NCBI GenBank assembly: GCA_963715985.1
Contig: CAVQSP010000014.1
Span: 352,001-416,000 of the forward strand
Source: an uncultured Thermoleophilia bacterium
GTDB taxonomy: Bacteria; Actinomycetota; Thermoleophilia; UBA2241
Length of the DNA: 64,000 nt
Direction: 5' to 3'
The position numbers were made by a program, and so were the translations under genes. Below are positions 9,501 through 64,000 of the stretch, one piece after another. Below the pieces are notes generated by a model. The model was not told where the DNA came from. It worked only from the letters and a program-made list of their open reading frames with translations, and ran no database searches. Position 1 is the first letter of the stretch; each line of letters begins with the position of its first letter.

Positions 9501-9887
9501 GTGAGGCAAGCCAGGTGGCCGCGGCGGCCCCGCGTCACGATCCTCTTCGGAGCTCGTGAGGCGCCCGTCGAGGAAAGTCCGGACACCGCAGAGCAGGGCG
9601 CTGGCTAACGGCCAGCCGGGGAAACCCGAGGGAAAGCGCAACAGAGAGCAGACCGCCAGCGGCCCCTTTCGAGGGGTGCGGGTAAGGGTGAAACGGTGAG
9701 GTAAGAGCTCACCAGCGGTCCTGGTGACAGGCCGGCTCGGCAAGCCCCGCCCGGTGCAAGGCCAAATAGGGGAGTGTTTGAGGGTTGCTCGCCCGAGACT
9801 CCCGGGTTCCGGCCGCATGAGGCGCGCGGCAACGTGCGTCCCAGATGGATGGTCACCCACGACAGGATCCGGCTTACGGCTTGCTAC
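9501..9887 (+). ncRNA. rnpB: RNase P RNA, class A
   Basis: Universal motifs GAGGAAAGTCC and ACAGGATCCGGCTTAC, GGTAAG loop, P1 pairing GGCAAGCC/GGCTTGCT. Confidence 0.97.
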
Positions 9888-51523: not shown

Positions 51524-51600
51524 CGGGACGTGGCGCAGCCTGGTAGCGCACCTGCTTTGGGAGCAGGGGGCCGGCGGTTCGAATCCGCCCGTCCCGACCA
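51524..51600 (+). tRNA. tRNA-Pro(TGG)
   Basis: Cloverleaf; anticodon arm CCTGC-TT-TGG-GA-GCAGG; GTTCGAATC; CCA end. Confidence 0.97.
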
Positions 51601-51613
51601 GACACCCATGCGG

Positions 51614-51690
51614 GCGGGAGTAGCTCAGTTGGCTAGAGCATCAGCCTTCCAAGCTGAGGGTCGCGGGTTCGAAGCCCGTCTCCCGCTCCA
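51614..51690 (+). tRNA. tRNA-Gly(TCC)
   Basis: Anticodon arm TCAGC-CT-TCC-AA-GCTGA; CCA end. Confidence 0.97.
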
Positions 51691-51787
51691 TTTCTTACCT
51701 CTTCCATGCAGCGCGCTGCTGCGTGGCGGGGTAGAGTGTCGCTCACCGCACCGCGGCTGTAGTCCGCCTCCGTTGCCGGTGTGACTC

Positions 51788-51864
51788 GCGCCCGTAGCTC
51801 AGCTGGATAGAGCAGGAGACTTCTAATCTTCAGGTCGCAGGTTCGAATCCTGCCGGGCGCGCCA
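51788..51864 (+). tRNA. tRNA-Arg(TCT), integration target
   Basis: Anticodon arm GGAGA-CT-TCT-AA-TCTTC; CCA end; 3' half duplicated at 61269. Confidence 0.97.
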
Positions 51865-51866
51865 TT
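51825..51866 (+). repeat. attL core (42-bp direct repeat)
   Basis: AATCTTCAGGTCGCAGGTTCGAATCCTGCCGGGCGCGCCATT is identical to 61269-61310. Confidence 0.95.
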
Positions 51867-51882
51867 TAGCCTCAAAACGGCC

Positions 51883-51910
51883 AAAAGGAAGGCCCCTCGC
51901 GGGGCCTTCC
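51883..51910 (-). terminator. Terminator between tRNA-Arg and the integrase
   Basis: AAAA-GGAAGGCCCC-TCGC-GGGGCCTTCC (T-tract on the minus strand). Confidence 0.75.
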
Positions 51911-51941
51911 GTCCTCCTACCGTCCTCCTACCCTGACGCGG

Positions 51942-53082
51942 CTACGTGTGCGCCACGTCCACGAGCGCCGCCACGAGCTCCGCCGCCGACTCCTGCAGCG
52001 CCGGGATGACGTGACTGTAGCGGTCCATCGTCATGGCGATGTTCGCGTGCCCGAGCCGCTCCTGCACGACCTTGGGATGGATGCCGGCGCCGAGCGCCAT
52101 GCGTCGCCCAGCCGTGACGCAGATCGTGAAGCCGGATGCTCGGCACGCCCGCGGCCTTCACCGCTTGGCGGAAGAGGTCGGTGATCCTGTCGGGATGCCA
52201 GGGCTCGCCGTCCTCGCGGGTGAAGACGTGCCCGGTGGCCGTCCAGGCATCGGCCCACTCTACGGCGTCCTCGAGCTGCTGGTCTCTCTGCCGCTGCAGG
52301 GCCGACACCGTGGCCGCGTCGATGGCGACGGAGCGGCCCCTGTCGGTCTTCGTGGGACGTTCCATGACCTCGTAGTTCGTCGTCACACGCTGCCGCTGGA
52401 TGGCGAGACGCCCGGAGGCCAAATCAACGTCGGCCCACCGCAGTCCGAGTGCTTCCCCGCGACGCAGCCCGGTCATCGCCAGGAGCCGCCACAGAGGGCT
52501 CAGGCGGTCATCCTTCGTGGCCCGCAGGAACGTGGCCAGCTCATCACGCGACCACGTGTTGAGCTCCGGCATACGGACCTTGGGACGAGTGACGCCGTGG
52601 GCCGGGTTCGTGCGCAGGAGTCCCGCCTTCACCGCGTCCCCGAGCGCATGGTGCAGGACGACGAGGACCGCGCGCCGACTGGCAGGGGAGAGGATGCTGC
52701 CGCGGACGCTGGTCTCGCTGGCCAGCTTGGCCGCCATCACGCTTACGTCGTTGCGGGTGAGCTTCTGCAGCGGGATCGTGCCGATGTGGGCGCTGATGCG
52801 CTTCACGTGCAGCTTGTAGGCGTGCAGGGTGTTCGGTGACAGGTTCTCAGCGCCCAGCGCGGGCAGCCAGCGCGCCTGCAGGTAGTCACTCAGGGACAGG
52901 TCCACCGGGGCGACGTAGTCGCCTCTCTCGCGGTCCCTGAGCGCGTCGTGCATCGCCTTCTCTGCCGCTTTCTTCGCCGTGTACTTCTCGGGCAGCATCT
53001 CCTGCCGGCGTCGACCGTCGACCGGCTCGAGCTCGAGCAGGATGCGCCAGTAGCCGCGCAGATTGCGGACGTGGCCGGTCAT
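51942..53082 (-). CDS. int: Tyrosine integrase (frameshift near 52100)
   Basis: 'TGLRRGEALGLRW', 'PTKT', 'HDLRHG'; shifted tail 'HPKVVQERLGHANIAMTMDRYSH'. Confidence 0.93.
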
Positions 53083-53420
53083 GAGTCGCCCTCCTCGATG
53101 GCCTCGCCGTCGATGACGTCATCTAGCGCGGCCCCCCTAGCAGCGCGCGCGGCCTTGCGAGACGCGGCATCCCACGGCGGCTCACGGTTGAGACGCGCGA
53201 GCGCGTCCCACACGGGCTGCCAGTAGTCGACGTGCCGGTACTGGTCGCGCAGCTTGGTCAGCTCGGCGCGGACGTGGTCCTTCTCGCGGTAGACGAGGTC
53301 CATGACCTCACGTATCTCCGGAGACTCGGCGGCCCGTGCGTCGTCCTGCTCGACGCGGACCCGGAAGGGCTCGGCGATGTCGTCGACAGCATCCCGGTAG
53401 CCGCGTTCGTACTCCTTCAT
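53079..53420 (-). CDS. Hypothetical protein
   Basis: 113 aa ORF with GGAGG RBS, translationally coupled to int. Confidence 0.6.
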   Translation of the reverse strand: MKEYERGYRDAVDDIAEPFRVRVEQDDARAAESPEIREVMDLVYREKDHVRAELTKLRDQYRHVDYWQPVWDALARLNREPPWDAASRKAARAARGAALDDVIDGEAIEEGDS

Positions 53421-54016
53421 GGTGTGCCTCCACTCTTCGGCTTCATCTCAGGGAACCGCTCCCACGCCTTCTGCAGCCGGCGCCACACCGTCGACTGGTC
53501 GACCTCCAGACGTGCTGCGGCTACTTCACGCGGGCGCGCGTAGCCCTGCGCGACCGCCTGCCGGTACACCTCCGCCGTCTGCCGTAGTTCGTCGTCGTCG
53601 AGTCCCCTGCGACCGCGGCGCACGGTGAGCGACTTCACTGTGGCGCCCATCGCCTCGCCGGCCGTCGGCCAGTCACCGAAGCGCAGGTTGAGCCAGTCCC
53701 ACTCCGCGACCCCGGCGACCGCGTCGCGAATGAAGGTCATGACGTTGGCCCACGGGAACACGCGCAGCATCGACTTCGTGACCTCGTGCTCCTCGCCGCC
53801 GTCTGGGGCGCCGAAGCGCAGGCCCGTGCAGATGAGGCGCCCCGACTGCTGCCGCCCGAGACGCACCTCTACGCGGCAGGGGAGGTCGCCGCCGTCCAGC
53901 GCGATCCAGCGCTCCTCGGGTACGTCCGGGTCCGGCTCCGCGACCATGTCGACGCGGTACTTCGGCAACTCCGTTGCATCGTATCCAGCCACCTTCTGCA
54001 GCCTCCTTGCAATCAT
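53417..54016 (-). CDS. Putative repressor with C-terminal HTH (DUF6214-like)
   Basis: 'AEVYRQAVAQGYARPREVAAARLEVDQSTVWRRLQKA'; divergent from the XRE gene. Confidence 0.65.
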   Translation of the reverse strand: MIARRLQKVAGYDATELPKYRVDMVAEPDPDVPEERWIALDGGDLPCRVEVRLGRQQSGRLICTGLRFGAPDGGEEHEVTKSMLRVFPWANVMTFIRDAVAGVAEWDWLNLRFGDWPTAGEAMGATVKSLTVRRGRRGLDDDELRQTAEVYRQAVAQGYARPREVAAARLEVDQSTVWRRLQKAWERFPEMKPKSGGTP

Positions 54017-54029
54017 GGTTGACTGCAAG
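54006..54029. promoter_or_regulatory. Candidate switch operator between the divergent regulators
   Basis: CTTGCAATCA-TGGT-TGACTGCAAG (9/10 inverted repeat) overlapping the leftward ATG and a TTGACT -35. Confidence 0.55.
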
Positions 54030-54065
54030 AGTACCACTACCTGTACCGCTGGACAAGGAGGCACC

Positions 54066-54281
54066 GTGTTTGAACTGACCCGCCAACGTGAGGCGTTCGG
54101 CTGGAGCAGGCGCGAGCTGGGCGCCCGCGCCGACGTGCACCCGAACCGCGTCGGCGCCATCGAGAACGACCGCGTCAGGCCCTACCCGCCCGAGCTCGAG
54201 CGCCTCGCCCGCGCCCTCGGCTACCACGGCGACCCCGCGGACCTGCTGCGCGAGGTAGAAGTCAATGCGCCCCCCGCCTGA
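54066..54281 (+). CDS. XRE/Cro-like HTH regulator
   Basis: 'REAFGWSRRELGARADVHPNRVGAIEND...LERLARAL'; AAGGAGG RBS. Confidence 0.85.
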   Translation: MFELTRQREAFGWSRRELGARADVHPNRVGAIENDRVRPYPPELERLARALGYHGDPADLLREVEVNAPPA

Positions 54282-54471
54282 GCCCCTCACCGTCGACGAC
54301 CTGCGCCGCCGGCCGACGATCACCGTGACCGAGTACGCCGCTTTCATCGGCGTGAGCAAGGACACGGCCTATGAGGCCGCGGCCAGGGGCGAGCTGCGCG
54401 TACTGCATCTCGGCCGGCGCGTGCTCGTGCCGACGGCGCCGGTGCTCGAGGAGCTCGGGTACACGCCGTGA
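54265..54471 (+). CDS. Excisionase / HTH_17 DNA-binding protein
   Basis: 'TITVTEYAAFIGVSKDTAYEAAARGELRVLHLGRRVLVP'. Confidence 0.88.
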   Translation: MRPPPEPLTVDDLRRRPTITVTEYAAFIGVSKDTAYEAAARGELRVLHLGRRVLVPTAPVLEELGYTP

Positions 54472-54716
54472 GCGGCCGGTACGGTTTCCCCGCCTTCACC
54501 GACGAAGAGAAGGCCCGGCTCCGCGAGTGCCTGCCCACCGAAAGAGACGTCATGCTGGGCTGGGCCATGCCGCTGCTCTCCAAGTCGCCGCTTGAGCGGC
54601 GCGTACTCGTGGCCGCACAGATCGAAGTCCTCGACGGCATCAACGAGGACCCGGCGGGCTGGTGTGCCCGTGCCCTGGAGCTGGCCAGAGCGGAGGCCCA
54701 CCGCGATGCCCACTGA
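54468..54716 (+). CDS. Hypothetical protein
   Basis: 82 aa, overlapping start/stop with both neighbours. Confidence 0.5.
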   Translation: MSGRYGFPAFTDEEKARLRECLPTERDVMLGWAMPLLSKSPLERRVLVAAQIEVLDGINEDPAGWCARALELARAEAHRDAH

Positions 54717-55808
54717 CGAGGACGTCGACGCCGCGCGCCGCGTGTTGGAGATGATGGAGGAGCGCGCCGCGCTGCGCGCCGGTGACAACGGCGACAACGG
54801 CGACGGCGACAACGGTACCGGAGACGACGGTTACGACCTCACGCCCCTGGACTGGCCGGCACTCCTGCGCGACGGCGTACCCGAAGTCGAGTACATCAGC
54901 GAGCCCTACCTGCCCCGAGCGCGCCCGCATCTGGGTGTGGGGCCAGACCGGCTCGATGAAGTCGCTGTGGTGCGAGCACGAGGCCGCGAGCCTGTCGCGT
55001 GAGGGCGTGCGCGTCTCCTACTTCGCCGAGGAGAACCCCATCGGCGAGGAGCTGCGCCGGCTGGCGAAGCTGCAGCCGGACCCGGCGCACTTCCGCCTCT
55101 TCCACAGGACGGGGATGGACCTCACCGATGAACGCTGGGTGGTCGCCCTGCTGGGCGCGACCAGGGGCGATGACATCATCTTCCTCGACAGCTGGACCGA
55201 CCTGTGGGGCGGCAACGAGGACGCCAACCGCGAGGTGCAGCAGTTCGACGCCGCCGTGCTCAAGCCGCTGCAACGGCAGGGCGTGACGCCGGTCGTGATC
55301 CACCACATGGGGCACCGCTACATGTTCAGCGACCGCGGCGGCGCCACCGGCGGACGCGGCGCCTCCTCACTGGGGCAGAAGGCCGACGTGACTCTGGAGT
55401 TCAAGAGTGCCGGTGACGACCTCTTCACCATCGTCTACGGCAAGTGCCGCATCGGCGGCATCCACCAGCCGCCGCGCAGTTTCAAGGTGGAAGACACCGA
55501 CGACGGGCGCGTGCGAGATCGTCGAGTGCGAGTCGCTCGAGGACCGCGCCGTCGCGGAGCTGGCCGAGAAGGCGGCGCAGGCGATATTGACGGCGCCGCG
55601 CGGCTACCTCACCACCAACGAGCTGCGCGTCGCCGCGGGCGGCGGCAGGAACCACCAAGCGGCCGCCTGGGCCATCCTCGAAGACGACGCACGAGTGTGT
55701 ACGGGCGTCGAGAAGGTGCAGGCGGGGGACGGCAAGTGGCGGGACTGCAAAGTATGGCGCCCCGCGGCGCACTTGGGGTCGCACTTGAGTCTTGAAGGCT
55801 TGTCTTGA
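54706..55808 (+). CDS. AAA_25/RepA-like helicase (satellite replicase; frameshifts near 54915 and 55515)
   Basis: Walker A 'GQTGSMKS', Walker B 'IIFLDS', 'VIHH.GH', 'GRGASSL..KAD'. Confidence 0.75.
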
Positions 55809-55946
55809 CGCCGACGGTGACGCAAGTGATTGAAGTGCGCCCCGACGCCTATATAGGCGTGTCGTCGGGGCGCACTTGGACCACTTCGCAAGTCTCACCG
55901 TCCAACCGCGCCCCAGAGACGCGGGGCGCACTTGGGGCGTACTTGA
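55767..55946. repeat. Putative replication origin: GCGCACTTG iterons and palindrome
   Basis: Iterons at 55767, 55779, 55833 (reverse), 55870, 55926, 55937; 15-bp inverted repeat 55833-47/55863-77 around the palindrome ACGCCTATATAGGCGT. Confidence 0.7.
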
Positions 55947-55971
55947 CCCGAAAGCCGCGGGAGCGAGCACT

Positions 55972-56379
55972 GTGACCCCCGGCAACTACCTCCGCGCGCT
56001 CCTCAAGGTCGCGCCGGAGCTCCCCGCCGGCTTCGTCGTGATCGACGTCCTGCACGACTCGTGGTGTGCGCACTGGCGCGGCCGTCCCTGCGACTGCGAC
56101 CCGGAGCTCGTGGTGCATCGTGAGGAGTCCGACGATGACCACGCTGACGCCTCTCCGCGCCTGACTCTCGTCTGGAGCCGCGGCGGCAGCGCCAACGTCA
56201 CCGCTGCCGGCCGCGCGCGCCCCTGCCACATCTCCGACCTCGAGCGGCCCGCCGGTCGCTTTCTCTGTGACGGCTGCCGCCACCAACTGTTCATCGACGG
56301 CGGCAGCCACGTCGCCTGCACCTCACCCTCGCGCATCTTCACCCCCCATGGCCCCCGCCACGGCCACGCTGCCCCCTGA
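55972..56379 (+). CDS. Cys/His-rich hypothetical protein
   Basis: 'HDSWC...CDCDP' and 'CDGC'. Confidence 0.5.
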   Translation: MTPGNYLRALLKVAPELPAGFVVIDVLHDSWCAHWRGRPCDCDPELVVHREESDDDHADASPRLTLVWSRGGSANVTAAGRARPCHISDLERPAGRFLCDGCRHQLFIDGGSHVACTSPSRIFTPHGPRHGHAAP

Positions 56380-56689
56380 CCGCGCCCTCTCCCTACGCGC
56401 CACGGCGAAGCTGCTCGGCTGCTCGCCGTCGACCGTGCGGCGCCTCGAGTGCGTGGCGTTGGCGAAGATCGCGGCGGGGTTGCGACGTGGTCCGTCGTCC
56501 AACGCTGGACAACGGGAGATGGAGCGGGGACAGCCATATCCGGGCAGTGCAACCACGTCCGACGTTGGACATGGTTCTGCCTACGCCGTCGCGCTCGCCG
56601 AGACGGGCCATGACGCCGAGCTGCGCTACCTCGCCCGCCTCATGGCCTGCCCCTGGGGCGAGTACCCGGACGCCGAGCCGCCGTCGTGA
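56348..56689 (+). CDS. Sigma70 region-4-like HTH protein (possible late activator)
   Basis: 'SLRATAKLLGCSPSTVRRLE..ALAKI'. Confidence 0.6.
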   Translation: MAPATATLPPDRALSLRATAKLLGCSPSTVRRLECVALAKIAAGLRRGPSSNAGQREMERGQPYPGSATTSDVGHGSAYAVALAETGHDAELRYLARLMACPWGEYPDAEPPS

Positions 56690-56705
56690 CACACCCTGCG
56701 TACAA

Positions 56706-56932
56706 TGGTAGTGAGGCACCGGCGCGCGTGGCGGCGCTGTCAGGTGCCCTCGTCCCGTCCGCTTCGGCGGACGGTGCTCTTCAGCCAGCGCGGGGCTGCC
56801 TTCGGGCGTGGCCGCGACCGGCGAGCCGACGCTGCCGGTTCCAAAGTGCGACGGCGCCCAGGCGCCCGGCGGCATCGCGACCGCCGATGTGGCAAGGGTC
56901 CGGCCCACCTCGCCTGAAACGGGCCACTACCA
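56706..56932 (+). ncRNA. Candidate structured RNA of unknown family
   Basis: Follows TACAAT (56701); ends pair (TGGTAGTG/CACTACCA); internal hairpins include two C-UUCG-G tetraloops. Confidence 0.5.
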
Positions 56933-56954
56933 GGCAATCGACAGGAGGGCGACC

Positions 56955-57281
56955 ATGAAGACGAACACCGACGCCGCCGCCTTCTTCGCGACCATGGACG
57001 ACGAGCTCGCCGCCGCCGGCCTGCACCTGCTCGGTGAGCTGGCCGTGCGCCGCCCGCTGGACGACCGCGACCGCCTGCTCGTGGCCTCCGTCGTCACCGA
57101 GCTGGGCGCCGTCCGCGACGGCCTCCGCGTGGCCGAAGCCCTGGCCCGCCTGCGGCGCTTCATCGCGCAGCTCGGGCTGACCATCTTCGACCTGCCGGCG
57201 CTCTCCCTGGGCCGCAGCGACCTCGCCGCCGTGGTGGCGCCGCTGCTACCGATGCCGACCACGGCCGGGATGATGAACTGA
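56955..57281 (+). CDS. Hypothetical protein
   Basis: AGGAGG RBS, 108 aa, GC3-rich codons. Confidence 0.65.
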   Translation: MKTNTDAAAFFATMDDELAAAGLHLLGELAVRRPLDDRDRLLVASVVTELGAVRDGLRVAEALARLRRFIAQLGLTIFDLPALSLGRSDLAAVVAPLLPMPTTAGMMN

Positions 57282-57443
57282 CAACCGGAGCCCGTGGCTC
57301 CGTAACCGCGTCACCTGCACCACGACCGCCACGGCGGCCGGCCTGGGCTGCTCGCTGACCAGCGCGAGCACTCAGCGCCACCGCTGCCGGAGTTGCCGGA
57401 CACGCGACGCCGATCAGCCACCTTACTGAGAGGCAGCAGCACC

Positions 57444-58652
57444 ATGAGTATCAAGGACCTGCACCAGCAATACCTGGCGGCGGTTAAGACTGCCCGTGAT
57501 CCCTCGCTCAGCCGCGAGGCCCGCGCCTGCGCCGAGGAAGCGCTCGTGGAAGCGCGGCGCCAGCTCGACCTCGGCCTCATGCATGACGCCCAGGAGCGCG
57601 AGCACGTCGCCGACGACGACGCCAAGCAGCGTGCCCTCGCCATCCTCGACGGCAGCGTGCCCGCCGCCGACAGCGACGAGCTGCGCGAGTTCTACCGCCC
57701 GGTCGACCCCTCGCGGCCGATGCAGCAGTACATCAGCGTGCCGCTCGATCTGCGTCACCTGGAGAAGCGCGTCGAGTACCCGCTGGCCCTGGGCGACACC
57801 ACGTACACGTTCGGCAACTACGGCGTCGGCAGCACCGTCGCCAGCGCCATGATGACCGGCCTGACCGGGCAGAGCGCGATCCTCGAGGCCGGCCCCAAGG
57901 TGTTCCGCACGCCGACCGCGGAGCCGCTCGTCGTGCCGACCGCCACCGACATCGTCGCCGGCTACCGTGCCGAGGGTGTCACGGCCGCGGAAGACACCGT
58001 GGTGCTGAGCAAGCTCACGCTGTCGGGGTTCCACCTCGCCGGGTACACGGAAGTCACGTCAGAGTTCGAGGGCAGCGCCCTCAACGGCGGCGGCCCCGCC
58101 TTCGTCAGCGAGCTCTGTGGCCGCAGCCTGGGCGTCAAGCTCGCCACCGAGCTGGCCGTGGGCACCGACGCGAGTGACACGATCTGCGGCGCCTTCACCG
58201 CGCCGACTGTCGGCGTCACTGCCGTGGCGAGTACGAGCTTCTCCGCCCAGGAGCTTCGTGCCCTGCGTCAGAGCGTTCCCCCGGCCGCGAGGCGCAAGGG
58301 CGTCTGGGTGTTCAGTGACGCGGCCATGGCCCACGCCCTGCAGCTCATCGACGACAACGGCAACTTCATGATCCAGCCGGGCATCAACGGCGACGGCGCC
58401 GATACCCTGTGGGGGCAGAAGTGCCTGTGCGATCCCTACGGCCCTGCTCTGACAGCTTCAAAGCACGTCGTCTTGTATGGCGACTTCAGCAACGCCTTCG
58501 TCGTGCGCTTCGTGGGCAACCTCGAAGTCACGCGCAGCGACCAGGCCGGGCTCACCGAGTTCGTTTCTTGGATCTCCGTGTACCGGTATCAAGTCACCGT
58601 CGATTCGGGGTACGTCACGAGTGACGTGCGCTCGCTGAAGATGCTGCCGTAA
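57444..58652 (+). CDS. Phage major capsid protein (HK97 fold)
   Basis: Coiled-coil N-terminal delta-like domain, 'AEG', 'GYTEVTSE', 'GVWVFS', 'DDNGNFMIQP...DTLWG', 'LYGDFS'. Confidence 0.85.
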   Translation: MSIKDLHQQYLAAVKTARDPSLSREARACAEEALVEARRQLDLGLMHDAQEREHVADDDAKQRALAILDGSVPAADSDELREFYRPVDPSRPMQQYISVPLDLRHLEKRVEYPLALGDTTYTFGNYGVGSTVASAMMTGLTGQSAILEAGPKVFRTPTAEPLVVPTATDIVAGYRAEGVTAAEDTVVLSKLTLSGFHLAGYTEVTSEFEGSALNGGGPAFVSELCGRSLGVKLATELAVGTDASDTICGAFTAPTVGVTAVASTSFSAQELRALRQSVPPAARRKGVWVFSDAAMAHALQLIDDNGNFMIQPGINGDGADTLWGQKCLCDPYGPALTASKHVVLYGDFSNAFVVRFVGNLEVTRSDQAGLTEFVSWISVYRYQVTVDSGYVTSDVRSLKMLP

Positions 58653-58726
58653 GCCTGATCTACTGACCACGTGCCCGCTGTCGACCCTTCAGCGGCGGCG
58701 GGCACTCCACCATCAGTGAGGACGCC

Positions 58727-58855
58727 GTGAGCGACGACGAGGACGAGCGCATCCGCGAGGCCGTGCGCCGACTCATCGACGACGACGAGGCGACGGTCGA
58801 GCTGCTGGTGTGGTGCGTGCTGGCGAGCGAGACGATGAAGGAGCAGATGCCGTGA
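58727..58855 (+). CDS. Small acidic hypothetical protein (42 aa)
   Basis: GAGG RBS plus GTG; stop overlaps the HNH start. Confidence 0.4.
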   Translation: MSDDEDERIREAVRRLIDDDEATVELLVWCVLASETMKEQMP

Positions 58856-59209
58856 GTCCGTGGGCACCGAAGGCACCGTGTCGGGTATGTCACCGTGTCG
58901 GCTGCGTCGACCCGAGTCACAAGCGCAAGCCCTTCGCATGCGGCTGCCCCTCGTCGTGAGAGCAGACCGGGATGGGATGCCGACCGCAAGCGCAGGCGTG
59001 CCGTGGTCGAAGCGTGGCGCGCACGAGTACGGCGACGTCTGCCCACGCTGCCGCAGGACGGGCGTCAAGCTGACTGCCGACCACCTGCACCGGTGGCCCT
59101 CGGCGGCGCGGAGGACGGACCGCTCTCCGTGCTGTGCATCGACTGCCAGCGATCACAGGGAGCGCGCGTCGCCAACGCGCGACGGCGGCCCCCGGAGTCT
59201 AGGAATTGA
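58852..59209 (+). CDS. HNH endonuclease (packaging-associated; frameshifted)
   Basis: Joined frames read 'CPRC...TADHL.PVALGG...LSVLCIDC'. Confidence 0.7.
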
Positions 59210-59285
59210 TCGCGGGGGTGAGGCCGGCGCATCCGGGGGTGGCACTGCTTGTGCGTCCGCAAAATGGCGAAGCCCGAACGCAATC

Positions 59286-59630
59286 ATGAAAAGTGAGGCA
59301 CCATGCCCCGCACTCGCAAACGCCCCGAGATACCGCGCCGACGGCCTCTCCGAGCGCGCCAGGCACTCTGGCACGCTGTCGTGCCAACGCGCGGAGTCTC
59401 GCCGGTCGCCTCGTCTCATCGGTGAAGCCTGCGCGCCTCGATCGCGCCGACGAGGCCGCGGCCATCGTCGACGCCGAGGGTATGAGCTTCACCACGGAGA
59501 CGACGAAGACCGTGCACCTGCACCGCTGGTCAAGGTCGAGCGCGAGCAGCGCCAGCTCTTCGCCAAGCTGTGGAGCAGCATGTGCCACCTGGAGTGGGAC
59601 TCGCAGACGGACGGCAGGGTGTGGGACTGA
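59286..59630 (+). CDS. Terminase small subunit-like (P27 type; frameshifted)
   Basis: Joined frames read 'LWHAVV...DRADEAAAIVDAEGMSFTT...HPLVKVEREQRQLFAKLW'; follows HNH. Confidence 0.65.
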   Translation: MKSEAPCPALANAPRYRADGLSERARHSGTLSCQRAESRRSPRLIGEACAPRSRRRGRGHRRRRGYELHHGDDEDRAPAPLVKVEREQRQLFAKLWSSMCHLEWDSQTDGRVWD

Positions 59631-60002
59631 CGCCGGCCATGAGCGTGTTCTCCACCATCGCACACGTCGCCCTGGCCGCTGCGTCGCCGCCGCTGCGTCG
59701 TTCTGTTCTGGCCGCGGCGCCGTCACCGCTGAGCGCCGCTGCATCGTTACGCACGAGGCCCGCATAGAAGCGCCGAAAGCCAAGCCACTCCTACCTCCCG
59801 CGTGCTGCGAGCGCCTGAAACGGGCCCACAACGCGAACGGCGACCGTTAGCGCGGATCGCCGTTGCGGAGCTTTGGAAAGTTGGCGTCAGACTCTACACC
59901 GGGGGCGGGACGGCGGCGCCGTTGTGCGCCTGCAACGCGGAGACGCCCCCGCTCCTGCGAGGGCGCCTCCGTTTGTCCGCGTTCTGACAGCGGGCCGAAG
60001 TC

Positions 60003-60607
60003 TTACTGAGCGACCGTCGAAACGTCGAGCGTGCCGCTGAACGACTTGCCCGCGACGCTGACCGGGGCGTTCATCCAGCCAGAAAGACGATGCGCATGTT
60101 GCAGATCGTGTCCGCGATGATAGGCAGCGGGAAGACGTAGCCGGTGGTCGTCAGGTCCGTCAGCGTGCCTCAGCGACGAAGGCGTTTGACGTGGGCACCG
60201 CCAGGACCTCGAGTTCCCGCCGGGGCCGGTGGAGGCCCAGCCGAGCCGGTAGCGCACGTTGGCGAGGAGCTCGGGCTCCGGCGTGCCGGTGAGGGTCAGC
60301 TTCATGGTCGCGTGCAGCGGGTCGGTGCCCGACTGCGAGAAGCCCAGGTCGTTGCGCAGCGAGGTAGTCCAGAACTCCCAGTCGGTCGTGCCCATGACGG
60401 GGACGGCGCGCGGGAGCAGCGCATTGGCCCTGACGTTGGCGCCTTGTCCGTAGATCACGTCGAGGCCCGCAGGGGCCGCGCCGTGCTGCCCGTGAAGGGC
60501 ATCGGTAGGATGCCTGACCAGATCGCCAGGGCGACGGTCGCGACGCCGAGTGTGCCGGCGAACGCGAACGCGATCCGCAGGCGACGGTGTGTGAACAGTC
60601 TACGCAT
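60003..60607 (-). CDS. Exported cargo protein of the island (frameshifted)
   Basis: N-terminal 'MRRLFTHRRLRIAFAFAGTLGVATVALAIW' signal/TM segment followed by a beta-rich domain. Confidence 0.5.
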
Positions 60608-60665
60608 GGTGACTCATCTCCAGTGGAGCGTTGTCTTCTCACTCAGAGTGGATGCATGGCAGGCG

Positions 60666-60848
60666 TCACCGGCCCTTCTGGCGTCGTGTCCGGTCGAACG
60701 CGAGCACGTCGGCGGGGCGGAAGTAGATCCGGCAGCGGCCGACGTACATGCGGGGCAGGCGGGAGTCGTCGATAGCCTGGAGCTGGGCGTGCGTGAGCTG
60801 CAGACGTGCGGCAGCTTCAGCGAGCGTCAACATCCGGGGCTCGTACAT
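60666..60848 (-). CDS. Second HTH_17/excisionase-like protein
   Basis: 'MLTLAEAAARL...LPRMYVG...IYFRPADVLAF'. Confidence 0.7.
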   Translation of the reverse strand: MYEPRMLTLAEAAARLQLTHAQLQAIDDSRLPRMYVGRCRIYFRPADVLAFDRTRRQKGR

Positions 60849-61268
60849 GCTGGCCCATCCCCCGCGCGTGTCTGCACCCTGGCGGGTGCTTGGGCGATGC
60901 CGGGGGGAGGGTGCCCCCGCGCAGAGGAGTGGACCACTGTCGAGGCGATACACACATGCGCGGAGGCATGGCAACTATACCGCCTCGACGGCCACACATG
61001 CGCGGGGGAACGAAAGATGGTCTACCCCTCCACGGTACCGCCTCGACGACTCCCTTCTACACCACAACAGGAGCCGACGCAAGAGGACAGGACGTTACAG
61101 GGCCCGACACGGGGGCCGGGGGCCGTCCTCCATCCGTCCTCTCACCTAGCGCCGAAGGCCCCTGAAACGCGCCGACAGGGGCAGACGACGCGGCCGACCG
61201 CGCCACCACTTAGCCTCAAACGAGCAGTTTCGGCCGACAGGCGCCGACCGTGCCGCCGTGCGTGCCTG

Positions 61269-61310
61269 AATCTTCAGGTCGCAGGTTCGAATCCTGCCGG
61301 GCGCGCCATT
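61269..61310 (+). repeat. attR core (3' half of tRNA-Arg)
   Basis: 42/42 identity with 51825-51866. Confidence 0.95.
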
Positions 61311-62189: not shown

Positions 62190-62415
62190 TGCCGCGTGCC
62201 GGCAGTCCGCCGGCAGCTACTCCCCAGCTTCCTCGAGCCGCGGCGGCGAAGCGAGCAGGCCTTGGTCGCGGTCACCGCCCAGACATTCTGTGAACGGCGT
62301 CTCGACGCGCAAGGTCGAGCGCCTCGTCGCCCGGCTCGGCATCGAGAGCATGGGCCGCAGCGCCGTCTCCCGCCTCTGCCGCCCTCTCTATGAGCAGGTG
62401 CAGACCCTCCAAGAG
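62190..62415 (+). pseudogene. IS256-family transposase fragment
   Basis: 'PSFLEPRRRSEQALVAV' and 'VNGVSTRKVERLV..LGI...SAVSRLC..L.EQV' across frameshifts. Confidence 0.85.
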
Positions 62416-63002
62416 CCTGGATGTGCAGCCCCGAGGAACCTCCCGGCGAAGAGGGCGTGGAACGTTCAGACGGTGGCGACGGGAACTGGGGAGGCCCTCC
62501 CGGGCCTGGCGGACTGTGGAGAGTCGCCGGAGCGCCGCGCCCCAGGGCGGCGAGGAGCCGGGAAGTGGGTGTTGAGCCGGGAGGGCGTTGAGGCGACCGT
62601 AGTACCGCTTGCAGCCGACGGGACAACAGAACCCGCGGCGAAGGGAAGGGCCGCTCCTTCGTCTGCGCGTCGCGTGGAGTGAATGGCCGGTGAGTGCCCT
62701 CGAGGCTAGCCCACCGAACAAGACAAGGTCCGAGAACTGCAACGATCGCTGTGCCGGGCGGCCAAGGCCGACCCGGGACGACGCTTCCATGCACCCTACG
62801 GCAAGGTCCACCGCAGGGTCACTGGACGCCCCGTCGCGCCACGACCGAGTCGGTCGTGGCGGGTCAAGCCGAATGCCGGCGGCAAGAGGAGTCGATGAGC
62901 CGTGTGAGGGAGAACCTCATGCACGGTTCGATGGGGGGCGGGAGGAGACCAGCGCCGGTGGGCTTGCGCCGTGCGGCGCCAGGCGCCTCTCGCCTACGCG
63001 AC
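62412..63002 (+). mobile_element. Group II intron remnant (5'-truncated, RT core deleted)
   Basis: Domain V GAGCCGTGTGAGGG-AGAA-CCTCATGCACGGTTC at 62897-62929; domain VI ending ...CCTACGCGAC; IEP N-terminal 'DKVRELQRSL.RAAKADPGRRFHA.Y.KV' joined to the IEP C-terminus. Confidence 0.85.
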
Positions 63003-63233
63003 CTTGACCGAAGTGGGAGTACATACCCATCGTGACTCTGCCCACCGTGAGGTGCGGGCAGTCGGCTCATTCTCTTCCAGCTCACGCCGGTCCTACCTCT
63101 CCACCACGAAGAGGTCGGCACCCCGGGCCCGTGCGACTACCACGCCGCAGCCGTGCGGTGCTCGCCTGGTAGCGCGGACTGTTGCGTCTGCTGCGGGTAG
63201 GCTGACGAAGGCACACATAGGGGGAGGTAGAAA

Positions 63234-64000
63234 GTGATGGGGAGTCCATTCAGCTCCCGGAGCGCGGCGCGCTTCTGGCACATCAGTGTGTTCGTCCTGA
63301 TCGTCGCCCTGCTGGCCTCAGGCGCGGCGCTGGCCGCTCCGGCCGCGCACGCTCTGGGCAGCATCGAGGGTACGGTCACGGCCGCGCCCGGCGGCACCGT
63401 TCCACTCGAGAACATCCTGGTCTACGCGTTCAATCCCGGCCAGGTGCCGGTGTCCGCTGTGCCCGACCTGTCGTATGCGGTCGCCTCGGACGGGACCGAC
63501 ACGAACGGCGAGTACAAGCTCGACGTCCCCGCCGGTGAGTACGCAGTGTGGTTCAGCGACGGCCTCATGCAGATCTCGGCAGTGCCGACGGTCAACGACT
63601 ACGTCGCTCAGTGGTTCTGAGGTTCCTCGCCTTTCGACTCCGGTCAGGGCCCGTGGGAGACGGTCAACGTCGTCGCCAACCAGAGGATCGCCGAGCAGAA
63701 TGACAGCCTCGCCCCGGCGAGCAACATCTCAGGTATGGTCTTCGCGGCGGGCGGCACCACCGGCCTCCTGGACATCGAAGTGTACCTGTACACTCGCGAC
63801 ATCGAGTGGTATTGGCCGGCGTGGGTCGAGGCCATCCAGGCCGGAGCCGGGCCAGGCCCTGCCGCCGTCACGGACAGCAGCGGCTCCTACACGCTTCCCC
63901 AGCTCAAGCCGACCAGGGGCGCAGCGGGTCCCGACGACTACTGGGTCTACTTCTACGATCCCAGCAAGCACCATGCGCCTCAGTGGCGCGACATGCAGCC
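63234..64000 (+). CDS. Paralog of the surface protein at 31625 (in-frame TGA at 63618; 3' partial)
   Basis: Shared 'ALGSIEGT', 'LENI.VYAF', 'YAVWFSDGLMQ...VPTVNDYVAQW'; past the TGA the same frame reads 'AAVTDS.GSY', 'YWVYFYDP'. Confidence 0.8.

Follow-up and report, generated by a model that had tools for sequence, protein, structure and literature searches.

A 9.4-kb capsid-encoding island at tRNA-Arg in an uncultured Thermoleophilia bacterium, a probable portal-less phage satellite

The DNA analysed here, referred to as the window, is a stretch of 64,000 nucleotides from an uncultured Thermoleophilia bacterium (lineage UBA2241; GenBank assembly GCA_963715985.1, contig CAVQSP010000014.1, positions 352,001 to 416,000), and coordinates are positions in the window unless stated otherwise. 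It lies within contig C14 of an assembly of 4.35 Mb in 22 contigs, with 70% G+C, 88.8% complete and 7.3% contaminated. The window was found to carry an island of 9.4 kb that an original prediction, made from the sequence alone, had described as a capsid-encoding phage satellite. The integration target is a tRNA-Arg gene (anticodon TCT; 51788-51864, + strand; ARAGORN; Rfam tRNA, 71 bits), which is the last member of a tRNA-Pro, tRNA-Gly and tRNA-Arg(tct) cluster at 51524-51864. The 3' part of this gene, starting in the anticodon loop, is covered by a 42-nt segment (51825-51866) of which an exact copy lies at 61269-61310, and no further copy is present across the 4.35-Mb assembly. As the exact repeat occurs both at tRNA-Arg and at 61269-61310, the 42-bp att repeats of the original prediction correspond to the attL and attR sites of a 9.4-kb insertion. 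The nucleotide sequence thus shows that integration took place in the 3' part of tRNA-Arg(TCT) and that exact att repeats flank the island. Its gene order reads as that of a phage-inducible chromosomal island (PICI), with the integrase and a candidate regulator directed leftward, and an XRE regulator, Xis, Rep, a putative origin and morphogenesis genes directed rightward.

The gene at 57444-58652 (+), whose frame is intact, encodes a major capsid protein of the HK97 fold, extended at its N-terminus by a helical (delta/scaffold-like) region. The protein matched PF05065 (E 3.8e-22; 79.4 bits against a curated cut-off of 24.2 bits) and phrog_10 (7.8e-14), and no other PF05065 match was found in the genome. 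An AlphaFold2 model built from a 73-row alignment (pLDDT 86.5) displays long N-terminal helices at residues 3-17 and 24-68, followed by the HK97 fold. The best matches of the model in the PDB, as determined by Foldseek, were the capsid of the gene transfer agent (GTA) RcGTA (E 6.9e-17) and those of Mycofy1, T5/DT57C, the capsid-forming PICI (cf-PICI) EcCI2 and HK97, the EcCI2 capsid (9gyi) being at rank 11 with an E value of 4e-13. Profile, model and structural matches agree with the full-length HK97-type capsid with a delta-like N-terminus that had been proposed. Family 3 encapsulins are likewise defined by PF05065 and occur in Actinomycetota, which gives some ground for another reading, in which the island is an integrative element of plasmid type and its HK97-fold protein builds a non-viral compartment of the encapsulin kind. 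An exchange between capsids and encapsulins, for which a recent study argues (Aguilar et al., Nat Commun 2026, PMC13669383), lends this some further colour. The compartment nevertheless appears extremely improbable: PF05065 was the sole family matched in the profile search and no encapsulin family was matched, the top 50 Foldseek matches listed include no encapsulin and consist entirely of phage, GTA or cf-PICI capsids, the neighbouring genes are those for HNH and TerS described below rather than for cargo enzymes or biosynthesis, and the island open reading frames (ORFs) tested contain no Pfam family of FtsK-type transfer genes.

The capsid belongs to a small clade. When 1.84 billion representatives were searched with a profile, 4908 reached an E value of 1e-3 or lower and 42 one of 1e-30, with about 11 close relatives among the matches listed. 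Identity to the capsids of known phages (132 records, all under 60%) reaches at most ~39% over part of the protein and does not exceed 28% over half of it or more. Only remote matches were detected in related genomes (3 of 60) and in genomes of the phylum (11 of 400); three queries of genome contigs returned no relative, and viral contigs gave a single remote match of 29% (L143). Members of the clade are recorded on contigs of 1-19 kb, plus two of 76 and 397 kb, and the close relatives with readable DNA context (L006 and L007) are on contigs of 7.8-9.9 kb, so that the closest homologs are not always located in full-length prophages.

Two further genes of packaging type, an HNH-like endonuclease gene (58864-59209, +) and a gene for a P27-type small terminase (TerS; 59303-59630, +), lie beyond the capsid gene. 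Neither could be verified on raw ORFs because both are split across frames, HNH into four segments (three breaks) and TerS into three. The unrepaired HNH pieces matched nothing in Pfam, in PHROGs, in a scan of the genome for PF01844 or in a tblastn comparison with phages. A search with one of the pieces found P0163, an intact protein of 139 aa with 54% identity (E 3.7e-17), whose alignment to 58864-59188 runs through four frame segments. P0163 and P0164 match HNH_5 at 8e-5 and 1.2e-5, respectively, and HNH at 2.5e-3, all below the Pfam cut-offs. P0163 and the capsid-clade member P0021 are both recorded on one Logan contig of 5541 nt, which hints at linkage of capsid and HNH genes in another element.

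The TerS gene was recognised through P0171, an intact protein of 111 aa from another assembly that aligns to 59303-59627 across three frames at 80-100% identity, the last piece being identical at 35 of 35 positions. The ESM-Atlas clusters nearest to P0171 are P27-family small terminases (score 0.95; 217/256 features; 28/30 matches). The four best Foldseek matches of its model are all to the HK97 small terminase, with weak support (E about 0.2), and in VIA the HK97 TerS scored Z 7.6, tied with unrelated helical proteins. A PDB sequence search with a TerS profile retrieved nothing relevant, and a six-frame scan with PF05119 missed the frame-broken island gene. By way of these homologs both the HNH gene and the TerS-like ORF of the original prediction were recovered. 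The sole Terminase_4 (P27 TerS) match in the six-frame scan of the genome was at G000:C19:4449-4652 (-), at 24.0 bits against a cut-off of 24.7, on an 18.6-kb contig unrelated to the island by tblastx. In HK97-like genomes the cos site is located between HNH and TerS, and the 94-nt gap between the two genes of the island (59210-59302) is therefore a candidate cos region.

No family for TerL, portal, protease, connector, tail or lysis proteins, nor any for tape-measure or adaptor proteins, was found with Pfam and PHROG on the island ORFs tested. Six-frame scans of the whole 88.8%-complete assembly detected neither TerL (PF17289, PF03354, PF03237) nor portal (PF04860, PF05133). The absence of TerL, portal, protease, tail and lysis genes noticed originally was therefore reproduced on the ORFs tested, and no remnant of terL, portal or tail genes came to light in the island by the ORF searches and the TerL/portal scans. 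Since TerS and HNH serve a purpose only together with a large terminase, finding them where TerL is missing speaks in favour of a helper. It seems rather probable from this gene content that the island is a portal-less, capsid-encoding, integrative and self-replicating phage satellite of ~9.4 kb, which would make its own shell and packaging-recognition proteins and borrow the rest.

The replication module is consistent with this. Rep (54706-55808, start approximate, +) is an AAA_25 helicase-type ATPase (9e-9; phrog_239 primase/helicase, 6e-5), as expected from the AAA replicase of the original prediction. It has no primase domain, and its C-terminal domain matches the winged-helix end of the Rep proteins of relatives. 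The gene contains two frame breaks in the assembly, at ~54900 and ~55500, and its three frame segments share 79-93% amino acid identity with the Rep of a related island in genome G445, described below. The iterons that had been pointed out were also found, just 3' of Rep at 55765-55944, where a 10-nt unit occurs six times, once in inverted orientation, and the copies surround an A+T-rich centre; six of the 10 matches to this unit in the window (up to 1 mismatch) fall within this segment. Conserved also in the G445 island, this stretch is read as a putative replication origin.

In the left arm, the predicted integrase is a tyrosine integrase (51942-53082, -; PF00589, E 4e-15) with one frame break near 52101, and the predicted Xis is an excisionase-type HTH_17 protein (54265-54471, +; PF12728, E 3.4e-6). 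Of the divergent DUF6214-like/XRE switch that had been proposed, the XRE-type HTH regulator (54030-54281, start approximate, +; HTH_31 1.4e-11, HTH_3 5e-10) and the divergent layout were upheld, and the DUF6214 label was not. The opposing ORF is a candidate for a leftward regulator of 247 aa from the first ATG (53417-54160, -; likelier start 54016), with its strand assigned by codon-position G+C. It matched no family in Pfam, PHROG or PADLOC apart from a weak HTH_1 at E 0.069, and the DUF6214 label found no support, the Pfam search giving no match to it even at E up to 5.

The left flank and the tRNA cluster are conserved in 49 of the 53 other genomes of the genus. In three of them (G024, G027 and G004) the tRNA-Arg gene is followed after ~0.6, 1.8 and 6.9 kb, respectively, by genes that start here only near window-equivalent position ~67000. 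As tRNA-Arg in these genomes soon reaches the genes beyond ~67000, they are relatives without the island, and the empty tRNA-Arg site that the original prediction had proposed to look for was thus found. A search for paralogous islands in the same genome returned other integrases only.

A Rep of the island type is present in five of the 53 genomes, and sister islands were found in some of them. One of 9.0 kb in G022 (L047, G022:C24, 8618-17650) shares the tRNA-Arg target and is bounded by att repeats of 40 nt, with an integrase gene and a Rep gene 77% and 75% identical in DNA to those of the island. It carries Int, Xis and Rep, and no capsid gene. In place of the latter are genes for an HTH protein, a VRR-NUC nuclease and TerL (Terminase_6C 4e-5; phrog_7579 1.3e-27); its integrase gene shows two frame changes. 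Next to this island, at 1343-8580 of L047, ~7.2 kb separate tRNA-Gly from tRNA-Arg, which adjoin in the genome studied here, and two large ORFs of this segment looked transporter-like. In G457 (L060, G457:C7, 5144-13257) an island of 8.1 kb is inserted at tRNA-Ala(ggc) between 55-nt repeats and contains VRR-NUC, Rep and pieces of TerL. The small HTH proteins of G022 and G457 are read as TerS-like. An island with the same Int/Rep backbone in G445 (L059, G445:C10, 4578-16915, approximate extent) has an intact integrase, VRR-NUC and a gene for a 1294-aa tape-measure protein (phrog_1272, 4.8e-13). Its Rep, of 746 aa, has an extra N-terminal region of ~420 residues with no Pfam match, and the C-terminal half is 79-93% identical to the Rep of the island. 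In G021 the Rep region is heavily broken. From these comparisons, one backbone appears to carry differing minimal morphogenesis cargo.

The two metagenome contigs with close capsid relatives resemble the island in part. L006 is 9867 nt long and its ends (1-126 and 9742-9867) are 100% identical, both being inside one 102-nt tandem array, which suggests a circle of ~9.7 kb, so that L006 is apparently a circular element of that size. A Rep-like ORF of L006 extends into the repeats, and its other genes include one for a capsid with 46% identity and one for an integrase, beside which 41-44 nt are identical to the 5' half of tRNA-Arg(TCT). The putative attP of L006 (7165-7215) thus copies the 5' half of the tRNA gene and the island uses the 3' half, i.e. 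the same target in the opposite geometry. Among the 10 ORFs of L006 scanned with Pfam the capsid gene is the only recognised structural gene, and no terminase or portal family was found. In L007 the order Xis, Rep (AAA_25 with HTH_11/HTH_23), small ORFs and capsid matches that of the island.

The remaining ORFs of the island gave no family. On the left are a 113-aa ORF with coding-like G+C at third codon positions (53079-53420, -) and an 82-aa ORF (54468-54716, +), both searched in Pfam, PHROG and PADLOC. Three small ORFs on the plus strand at 55950-57281 (stop-to-stop 55834-56379, 56267-56689 and 56715-57281) were searched in the same three databases, the third being directly upstream of the capsid gene and the middle one giving only a weak HTH_38 (E 3.7e-4). 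PADLOC run on 10 island ORFs gave one weak match, mad1 at E 0.0035, for the 140-aa ORF at 56267-56686, and it was given no weight. A coding-like 62-aa ORF (58667-58855, +; Pfam, PHROG) separates the capsid and HNH genes. Towards attR lie a 151-aa ORF with a coding-like signal (60003-60458, -; Pfam, PHROG and PADLOC), for which the best ESM Atlas score of 0.78 was uninformative, and a second HTH_17-like ORF (60666-60974, -; PF12728 6.2e-4, below the cut-off; phrog_66 at 0.049).

The relatives with an empty site also lack a further 5.7 kb to the right of attR (to ~67000 in C14), which is a separate variable region; no second, degenerate att copy was found in 61311-68500. The tRNA-Arg site is a variable hotspot extending past the island. 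The 5.7-kb region encodes paralogous secreted-looking proteins (63231-63617, 64467-65132 and 65105-66097). It also contains a match to a group II intron domain (62895-63008, +; RF00029, 42.2 bits against a 40-bit cut-off) and a 190-nt stretch (62211-62401) that occurs in many copies, at 75-87% identity, in this and other genomes of the genus, a 2.1-kb query containing it having matched 23 of the 53 genomes. The repeat and the intron domain may belong to one intron family.

Several observations weigh against the satellite reading. The labels of HNH and TerS depend on homologs and on sub-threshold or language-model evidence, and neither gene was recognisable in L006 or L007 (Pfam only, 10 ORFs each); in BLASTP of the island ORFs against those of L006 and L007, matches were confined to capsid and integrase. 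No helper phage was identified, none being visible in the 88.8%-complete assembly, and the assembly of a foreign capsid protein on a helper portal would be demanding. Little coding signal is present in 59630-61268, which holds two minus-strand ORFs. Comparison with intact relatives gave at least eight frame breaks in the island (integrase 1, Rep 2, HNH 3, TerS at least 2), an enrichment (8 or more breaks over 9.4 kb, compared with 3 over about 27 kb), and the island copy may therefore be decaying.

The origin of the breaks was considered in this light. That of the integrase gene follows the motif HDLRHGWAT, with frame -3 and then frame -1 when compared with the intact G445 integrase. The frames of rpoB and of two dnaE-type genes are intact in the assembly. 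Three conserved core genes to the right of the window are frame-broken (window-equivalent ~68250, 69502 and 75485 in C14; one encodes an ABC-type ATPase) and intact in three to five relatives, the background in syntenic core genes being 3 breaks in about 16 kb. The broken core genes indicate that the assembly carries residual indel errors, and P0171, from another assembly, has an intact frame and no differing residue beyond the parts affected by the shifts, so that for TerS at least an assembly error is indicated. Taken together, these two facts make poor local consensus at least as likely as early decay, as far as can be judged from the assembled sequences, and the assignment of all frame breaks to decay was rejected as a firm conclusion.

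Decay on a larger scale would make the island the remnant of a cf-PICI-like satellite or HK97-like prophage that lost TerL, portal, protease and connectors, leaving an immobile and eroding residue. The frame breaks in four genes speak for such erosion, as do the weak coding signal over 58840-59380 and 59630-61268 and the heavily broken Rep region of G021, and the TerL and tape-measure genes of the sister islands could be other leftovers of one larger ancestor. We nevertheless hold this to be unlikely. The 42-nt att repeats are exact, three att-bounded islands of similar gene backbone (8.1, 9.0 and 9.4 kb) occur at two different tRNAs, and the apparently circular L006 of ~9.7 kb has the capsid as its only recognised structural gene. 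The six-frame scans show no remnant of terL or portal, core genes are broken as well, and TerS is intact in another assembly. Moreover, the gene order in cf-PICIs is HNH-TerS-TerL-portal-protease-capsid, and an internal deletion of this order would not yield capsid-HNH-TerS.

The satellite reading was then set against known types of mobile element. Classical PICIs, including the pathogenicity islands of Staphylococcus aureus (SaPIs), integrate at specific sites and have divergent regulators, xis, a replication module with its origin and their own TerS in 10-15 kb; they remodel the capsid protein of the helper and have no capsid gene of their own. The island shares with them the integrase, the divergent regulators, the replication module with a putative origin and TerS, and differs in having its own capsid gene, a Rep without a primase domain and a size of 9.4 kb, slightly below their range. 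Actinomycete integrative conjugative elements (AICEs) have an FtsK-like transfer protein, unlike the island, on whose tested ORFs no such Pfam family was found.

According to PMC10690885, cf-PICIs encode a whole head and packaging set, with protease, portal, connectors and TerL. The island is like them in being integrase-bearing with its own HK97-fold capsid and, as far as the homologs indicate, HNH and TerS, and unlike them in that portal, protease, connectors and TerL were absent in the searches run. The Streptomyces satellites MulchRoom and MiniFlayer, of 14.8-17.4 kb, are described in the same paper (PMC10690885) as having TerS, TerL, portal, scaffold and adaptor genes; like the island they are actinobacterial and have their own capsid and HNH genes, and MulchRoom also has a tyrosine integrase. 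EPIPs, the satellites of Mycolicibacterium aichiense, measure 11 kb and carry genes for TerS, scaffold, capsid and tape measure, and their gene list names neither TerL nor portal (PMC12822802, preprint, 2025). They resemble the island in the actinobacterial host, the size of about 10 kb and the presence of TerS and capsid without TerL or portal. Compared by description, EPIPs have a serine integrase, head-tail adaptor, stopper and tape measure, whereas the island has a tyrosine integrase (PF00589), Rep with iterons, and HNH; the sister island of G445 has, like EPIPs, a tape-measure gene.

A close likeness is to the twilight-zone mini HK97 genomes (PMC13669383), which measure 5-11.6 kb and have an integrase, Rep and capsid with no portal or tail. 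Such portal-less genomes have been in print only since October 2026, as free metagenome contigs that are hostless and whose mode of packaging is unexplained, and the authors leave open whether they are satellites or represent a new packaging mode. The island agrees with them in size, integrase, regulators, Rep/helicase, a capsid that is nearly the only structural gene and, as in some of them, an excisionase; with 9.4 kb between att sites, an HK97-fold capsid, lysogeny genes and no portal or tail found, it fits their size and content. Unlike these terminal-repeat metagenome contigs, it is chromosomally integrated with defined att sites and a host, and it adds TerS and HNH to their gene content. 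It also differs from the encapsulin-enriched group among them, which has encapsulin Pfam domains and no packaging genes, in having only PF05065 together with TerS and HNH.

For the twilight-zone genomes an autonomous mode of life has been put forward in PMC13669383, and the island, with its own Rep, putative origin and shell, could in principle be a portal-less mini HK97 virus that packages without a helper, for instance by a Rep-coupled route. This appears highly unlikely here. Rep is of the AAA_25 helicase type and not an HUH rolling-circle initiator, TerS and HNH act with a large terminase and a portal, the best structural matches of the capsid are to capsids of tailed phages, GTA and cf-PICIs, and no entry or lysis function was found on the island ORFs with Pfam and PHROG. 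A partial literature search, confined to main texts, found no description of the capsid-HNH-TerS combination in an integrated actinobacterial island. The suggestion of a new satellite family is softened by the comparable kinds of element in PMC12822802 and PMC13669383.

If the island is a satellite, its life cycle may be envisaged as follows. A helper phage would relieve the regulator pair, after which Int and Xis would excise the island and Rep would fire the iteron origin. The island capsid protein would build a small shell on the helper portal, ~9.4 kb fitting roughly T=4, and the helper protease would mature it. TerS and HNH of the island would guide the helper TerL to a cos site, for which the gap separating their genes is the probable location, and the tails and lysis functions of the helper would complete the particle. 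The division of labour in the original prediction, with an own shell and cos-type specificity factors and a borrowed motor and portal, is supported by the gene content, from which we also infer the dependence on a helper.

Together with the sister islands, the island may tentatively be placed in an actinobacterial family of tRNA-integrating satellites of 8-9.5 kb, with a shared Int-Xis-Rep-iteron backbone and a swapped minimal 'hijack cassette', although we would put the odds for this proposal somewhat short of even. The cassettes would be capsid, HNH and TerS here, TerL and the TerS-like HTH protein in G022 and G457, and the tape measure in G445, and the version with the capsid would then be the first portal-less HK97 mini-genome that is tied to a host and delimited by att sites. 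The island supplies what the free mini-genome contigs lack, namely a host, a precisely defined site of integration, relatives in which that site is empty, and a putative origin. As TerS and HNH make sense only with the terminase motor of a helper, whether such elements are satellites or a new kind of virus becomes a testable question, and TerS and HNH would, if the reading is true, constitute a direct genetic argument that HK97 mini-genomes are satellites and not autonomous viruses. The sister islands with TerL or a tape measure suggest that satellites may take over single steps of virion assembly, which would widen the targets for satellite finders in Actinomycetota.

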